A stretch of DNA of 64,000 nucleotides, taken from NCBI RefSeq assembly GCF_003334315.1, contig NZ_QOWR01000013.1; one strand, written 5' to 3'. The stretch's first letter is position 1. Every line of letters starts with the position of its first letter. The notes beneath the pieces were generated by a model, which was not told the DNA's origin, ran no database searches, and saw nothing but the letters and a program-made list of their open reading frames with translations. The translations under genes and the position numbers were made by a program. The DNA is from Escherichia coli (lineage in GTDB: Bacteria; Pseudomonadota; Gammaproteobacteria; Enterobacterales; Enterobacteriaceae). Shown here piece by piece: positions 63,916 through 64,000 of the stretch.

Positions 63916-64000
63916 ACGATAGTGGTAATGGTGCCAACTTACTGATTTAGTGTATGATGGTGTTTTTGAGGTGCTCCCGTGGCTTCCATCTCCATCAGTT

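Follow-up and report, generated by a model that had tools for sequence, protein, structure and literature searches.

The window analysed here, a stretch of 64,000 nucleotides of Escherichia coli DNA, is the terminal 64 kb of draft contig QOWR01000013.1 (GCA_003334315.1), and its base 64000 is the end of that contig; the contig itself (locus L003) matched the window over 6,718 nt with 100% identity and had the same last base. Near this end, the lysR gene lies on the plus strand and ends at 63296. On the minus strand, positions 63283–63923 carry a 3′ remnant of ygeA, the gene of the amino acid racemase YgeA (EcL-DER), which corresponds to nt 53–693 of the 693-nt CDS. The last bases, 63924–64000, are the left end of an IS1-family element on the plus strand, comprising the first 77 of its approximately 768 bp and identical at 77 of 77 positions to annotated copies. 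The 3′-ends of lysR and ygeA (stop codon at 63283–63285) are convergent and overlap by 14 bp, as in the reference genome.

The original prediction stated that the racemase frame on the minus strand contains no possible start codon from 63916 to the end of the window, and translation of 63999..63283 agrees with this, giving zero ATG, GTG or TTG in that interval. The translation consists of 28 residues followed by LINEG and the rest of the racemase sequence; these 28 residues include no stop, Met or Leu, and the single Val codon among them is GTA. The first available start codon is a TTG at 63913..63915, which opens a 210-aa ORF in the ORF listing (63283..63915, minus strand), with its stop codon at 63285–63283. 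This ORF lies within the last 718 bases of the window, 85 bases from the contig end. Two ATGs are also present out of frame, as the same prediction had noted, in the 18 residues translated from 63995..63942.

Comparison with intact genes showed what is left of ygeA. The remnant at 63283–63923, which starts with the second base of codon Tyr18 and includes the stop codon, matched ygeA of E. coli strain 7/2 at 100% over its 641 nt. The intact gene of strain 7/2 has 693 nt, encodes 230 aa and begins with MKTIGLLGGMSWESTIPYY. In the alignment to the reference ygeA, identity starts at ACTATCGTTTGATAAATG, which is CDS nt 53, and the sequences upstream of this point are unrelated. Compared with the E. 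coli YgeA of known structure (PDB 5HQT, 5ELL, 5ELM), residues 18–230 are encoded without any nucleotide difference from a wild-type allele. The original prediction was correct that the annotated E. coli protein is about 20 residues longer and has a Gly-rich N-terminus, since intact E. coli YgeA has 230 aa and starts with MKTIGLLGGMSWESTIPYYRLINEG. An error about the reference, which had been offered as one possible cause of the missing start, can be discarded, because the reference protein has 230 aa and PDB 5HQT, 5ELL and 5ELM span residues 1–230. Nor does the alignment to ygeA reveal a reference with the same sequence as the window and a start codon at this TTG or past the window edge.

The IS1 beyond the remnant was not recognised in the original prediction. 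From 63924 to the window edge the sequence is IS1 and not ygeA, being identical to copies that carry the annotation ‘IS1 family transposase’ in chromosomes and plasmids of E. coli. Identity over these 77 bases is 100% with E = 6e-34, which is not a matter of chance, and the window contains one occurrence of a 48-mer taken from the IS1 end, where zero are expected. The last 81 bases of the window match IS1 copies in 4,960 genomes with identities up to 100%. Moreover, megablast of 63283–64000 against 5,426 complete E. coli genomes divided the query cleanly into 63923–63283, which belongs to ygeA, and 64000–63924, which belongs to IS1. The junction and the identity of the sequences on both of its sides are thus directly observed. 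A small indel or frameshift is ruled out as the cause, because the sequence follows ygeA without a mismatch as far as nt 53, at which point IS1 takes over. Among the earlier suggestions, an indel or frameshift in this strain applies only in the loosest sense, that the strain does carry a mutation; the lesion found is the insertion of an IS1 of the 768-bp class at codon 18.

The elements of an IS1 end are present in their usual arrangement. IS1 is an element of 768 bp with the genes insA and insB′, a programmed −1 frameshift, inverted repeats of about 23 bp and usually a 9-bp target duplication. In the window, the left terminal inverted repeat (GGTAATGGTGCCAACTTACTGAT) occupies 63924..63946 on the plus strand; it has the GGTRATG form of the family and agrees at every position with the left end of a 768-bp copy annotated as IS1. 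A sigma-70-like promoter match (GTGCCA-16-TATGAT) lies at 63931..63958 on the plus strand, facing inward to insA, with the ygeA remnant behind it. The first 7 codons of insA (VASISIS), with a GTG start at 63979, occupy 63979..64000 on the plus strand and read out of the window, and this start coincides with that of the IS1 transposase CDS annotated at position 1560 of locus L002, the IS1 locus of NZ_CP123325.1. Since the GTG at 63979 is the insA start, the IS1 reads away from the ygeA remnant. In comparison with known IS1, insA of the window stands at the expected 55 nt from the end, and nothing is different in kind. Compared with copies annotated IS1A or IS1B, to which the 77 bp are about 91% identical, the isoform in the window is about 9% divergent over this length.

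The complete IS1 in NZ_CP123325.1 served as a proxy for the part of the element that lies past the contig end. This copy has 768 bp, an annotated programmed frameshift and a 9-bp direct duplication (CAAAGTAGT) on both flanks, and its ends match each other, inverted, at 20 of 23 positions. Identity of the window to this copy starts at GGTAATGGTGCC and reaches the last window base. From the boundaries of the proxy copy, given by its 9-bp duplication and its inverted repeats, base 63924 is the first base of IS1. To look for a hidden start, we placed the complete proxy IS1, of which the first 77 bp are identical to the window, in reverse complement in front of the remnant. In this construct the ygeA frame stops 4 codons past the window edge, and the first start codon is the same TTG at 63913–63915, which rules out a start codon beyond the edge.

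The edge of the window is a true contig end inside a multi-copy IS1. Short-read contigs usually break in multi-copy IS elements, and only 77 bp of IS1 are seen and 52 nt of ygeA are absent because the assembly stopped inside such an element. We consider it very probable that the apparent loss of the start originates from insertion of IS1 into ygeA at codon Tyr18, combined with the end of the contig inside IS1. According to this explanation, IS1 would have transposed between nt 52 and 53 of ygeA, and the remnant at 63283–63923 on the minus strand would in this way have become joined exactly to base 1 of the IS1 left inverted repeat at 63924. The short-read assembler would then have halted in IS1 owing to the multiple copies of the element, and the 210-aa ORF starting at TTG would be a gene-caller product of the leftover frame.

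For the side of the insertion past the contig end, we infer a simple insertion with a 9-bp target-site duplication, as is usual for IS1, and take the proxy copy from another strain as the model for the interior of the element. The predicted duplication copy in the window is ACTATCGTT, at 63915..63923 on the minus strand, which represents ygeA nt 53–61 and adjoins the IS1 end. The order of sequences beyond the element would be the IS1 right end, AACGATAGT, ygeA nt 52–1 and araE, so the 5′ fragment of the gene would lie on the far side of IS1.

A different arrangement past the contig end is quite unlikely. According to this alternative, IS1 mediated a deletion or rearrangement, either by promoting the deletion of adjacent DNA or by recombining with another IS1 copy, in which the first 52 nt of ygeA, and perhaps araE and sequences beyond, were removed or relocated. 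Only a single junction is visible, the contig ending before the other side is reached, and no longer contig was obtained when metagenomes were scanned for this junction, both of which leave room for such an event. However, nothing supports it positively, and a simple insertion that duplicates 9 bp, as seen for the proxy copy, is what IS1 transposition usually produces. A deletion would in any case leave unchanged the conclusion that ygeA is disrupted by IS1.

The deposited protein of the remnant (RCQ30224.1/WP_114508844.1) is named ‘amino acid racemase [Escherichia coli]’, which implies a short functional racemase of 210 aa initiated at TTG 63913–63915, and a genuinely shorter product had also been among the earlier suggestions. 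In favor of such a protein, the reading frame is uninterrupted and the annotation pipeline took it as a CDS, and PF01177 is still recorded on the 210-aa product. Homology to the PF01177 family does extend across the catalytic core, given the 100% nucleotide identity to ygeA nt 53–693. In addition, the positions of Thr83 and Cys197, the catalytic residues of EcL-DER, are still encoded in the remnant; judged from the sequence, some residual activity of an unexpectedly expressed fragment is therefore conceivable.

However, several observations make a short functional racemase highly improbable. The TTG is the internal codon Leu21 of a 230-aa protein for which the solved structures include residues 1–230, and it is not credible as an initiation site. 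The 25 nt upstream of it (AAGTTGGCACCATTACCACTATCGT) contain no Shine–Dalgarno-like purine run, whereas the native ATG of ygeA is preceded by CAGGAGAGAGGA, a strong Shine–Dalgarno sequence. A consensus scan found no promoter-like site on the minus strand from 64000 to 63916, and an outward promoter at the IS1 end driving the remnant, which we had considered, was dropped for this reason. The remnant thus has no start, ribosome-binding site or promoter of its own. In intact YgeA, PF01177 spans residues 7–223 (the intact homologue scores 8e-41); since the domain begins at residue 7 and the product at residue 21, the 210-aa product is without the start of the domain. Codons 1–17, encoding the N-terminal strand and the Gly-rich GLLGGMS segment, are absent and IS1 sequence stands in their place. 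Residues 1–17 form the first β-strand and the Gly-rich loop adjoining the active site of the Asp/Glu-racemase fold. Finally, a genuinely shorter product is contradicted by the intact 5′ region in 5421 of 5423 complete E. coli genomes, together with the lack of a Shine–Dalgarno sequence at the TTG.

Compared with intact YgeA, codons 1–17, the Shine–Dalgarno sequence and the promoter have been separated off by IS1 in the window. The remnant is most likely a pseudogene, and the entry of its product in the database as an ordinary protein is an annotation artefact. As the native promoter, the ribosome-binding site and residues 1–17 are lost, the strain itself is most likely ygeA-null, to judge from its DNA. 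In principle, convergent transcription into the lysR end could change if ygeA is no longer transcribed.

We compared the locus with the same region of other strains. The ygeA/IS1 junction was present in 0 of 5,426 complete E. coli genomes at ≥80% coverage of a 301-nt junction query, and the exact 39-nt junction had 0 matches in JGI metagenome contigs. The 140 bp around the site were intact in 5,421 of 5,423 complete E. coli genomes and broken in 2. One broken gene is that of E. coli OkiPb01690 (NZ_AP042548.1, L007:1192-2500), in which an IS3-family element is located at ygeA nt 39–42 with breakpoints overlapping by about 4 bp, and in which PGAP still annotates a downstream ‘amino acid racemase’ of 215 aa. 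Both in OkiPb01690 and in the window the IS lies within the first 60 nt of ygeA and the truncated ORF is annotated as ‘amino acid racemase’; the OkiPb01690 case differs in that the element belongs to the IS3 family and is about 1.3 kb long, the position is another one and the strain is unrelated.

A closer relative is found in Logan assembly ERR3329398, which differs from the window at 1 of 6,636 positions by blastn, whereas strain 7/2 differs at 28. The contig end of this assembly (L004:1-45, corresponding to the window from 63918 downward) has ygeA starting at nt 58, directly next to the right end (CTATCAATAAGTTGGAGTCATTACC) of an IS1A-like element, and this junction also gives a 210-aa ORF call. 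The insertion in ERR3329398 is independent of that in the window, because it involves the other IS1 end and another isoform, lies 5 bp away and has the opposite orientation. An accession search found no literature on assembly GCA_003334315/QOWR01 or on run ERR3329398. In addition, six contigs with a different ygeA allele end at nt 50–51 and keep no IS sequence (L008:1-60, AATFUG010000016.1; L009:1-60, SRR12446399); they yield a 213-aa ‘partial’ racemase (P0014), and the breaks hint at a further repeat insertion in this place.

These comparisons also bear on the quality of the contig end: an assembly artefact, in which IS1 was wrongly attached to an intact ygeA by a chimeric contig end, is very improbable, because even though the junction lies at the end of a draft contig, where misjoins are most frequent, the IS1 sequence begins at the join with precisely the first base of its inverted repeat, which is what transposition yields, the exact 210-aa product occurs on more than one contig (93,558 and 93,666 bp, although possibly from the same reads), and other strains have comparable IS junctions or contig breaks within the same few bases of ygeA.

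The 5′-end of ygeA has been hit by IS elements more than once. It is nevertheless unlikely, in our judgement, that the first ~60 nt of the gene are a recurrent IS target, whether because the site itself is a local hot-spot or because loss of the homoserine racemase is selected for. Such a reading relies on four separate events, namely those in the window strain, in ERR3329398, in the contigs broken at nt 50–51 and in OkiPb01690. The additional truncated ygeA genes were found via a cluster of truncated proteins, a biased sample that does not establish a hot-spot. A general IS hot-spot in ygeA was dropped, as only 2 of 5,423 complete genomes were broken within the 140 bp around the site. The insertion site is locally AT-rich, with 38% G+C compared with 50% for the ygeA gene, and an AT-rich site fits the target preference of IS1.

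As in IS1 inactivation of other chromosomal genes of E. coli and Shigella, the junction in the window lies at base 1 of the inverted repeat. Gene disruptions of this kind are ordinary and well known, and the case presents no new form of the gene. Its scientific weight is small, because IS1 knock-outs of non-essential genes are routine in E. coli. YgeA has been described as a PLP-independent racemase of low catalytic efficiency, reported as either a broad-spectrum or a homoserine racemase, and its loss has been reported to affect growth and biofilm formation (PMC8142540, PMC12838360). As a probable natural ygeA-null, the strain could serve studies of the reported homoserine-racemase and biofilm phenotypes of YgeA. 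A second practical point is that a truncated ORF stands in public protein databases as a normal ‘amino acid racemase’.

Several minor observations were made elsewhere in the window, mostly by comparison with strain 7/2. At 30945–31021 the window has one tRNA-Met gene, against three in strain 7/2 that are arranged in tandem every 110 bp, and the alignment offset shifts by 220 bp there. The short-read assembly has probably collapsed the tandem repeat; a real difference in copy number is less probable. Between fucA and fucI, 17216–19129 of the window contains an ORF for a FucP-like permease of 438 aa (17793–19109), and strain 7/2 has instead a 6.8-kb block with a LacI-family regulator, an FGGY kinase and an ABC transporter; this difference lies in strain 7/2, and the window is ordinary at this position. 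Approximately 130 bp at 1424–1552 match, inverted and at 82% identity, an intergenic segment of strain 7/2 close to tcdA/mltA (L005 30589–30719), and probably represent a dispersed intergenic repeat. The expected small RNA genes CsrB (7714–8073), GcvB (26254–26459), ES036 (29475–29517) and the OmrA/OmrB pair (59441–59724) are present at full length with nothing unusual.
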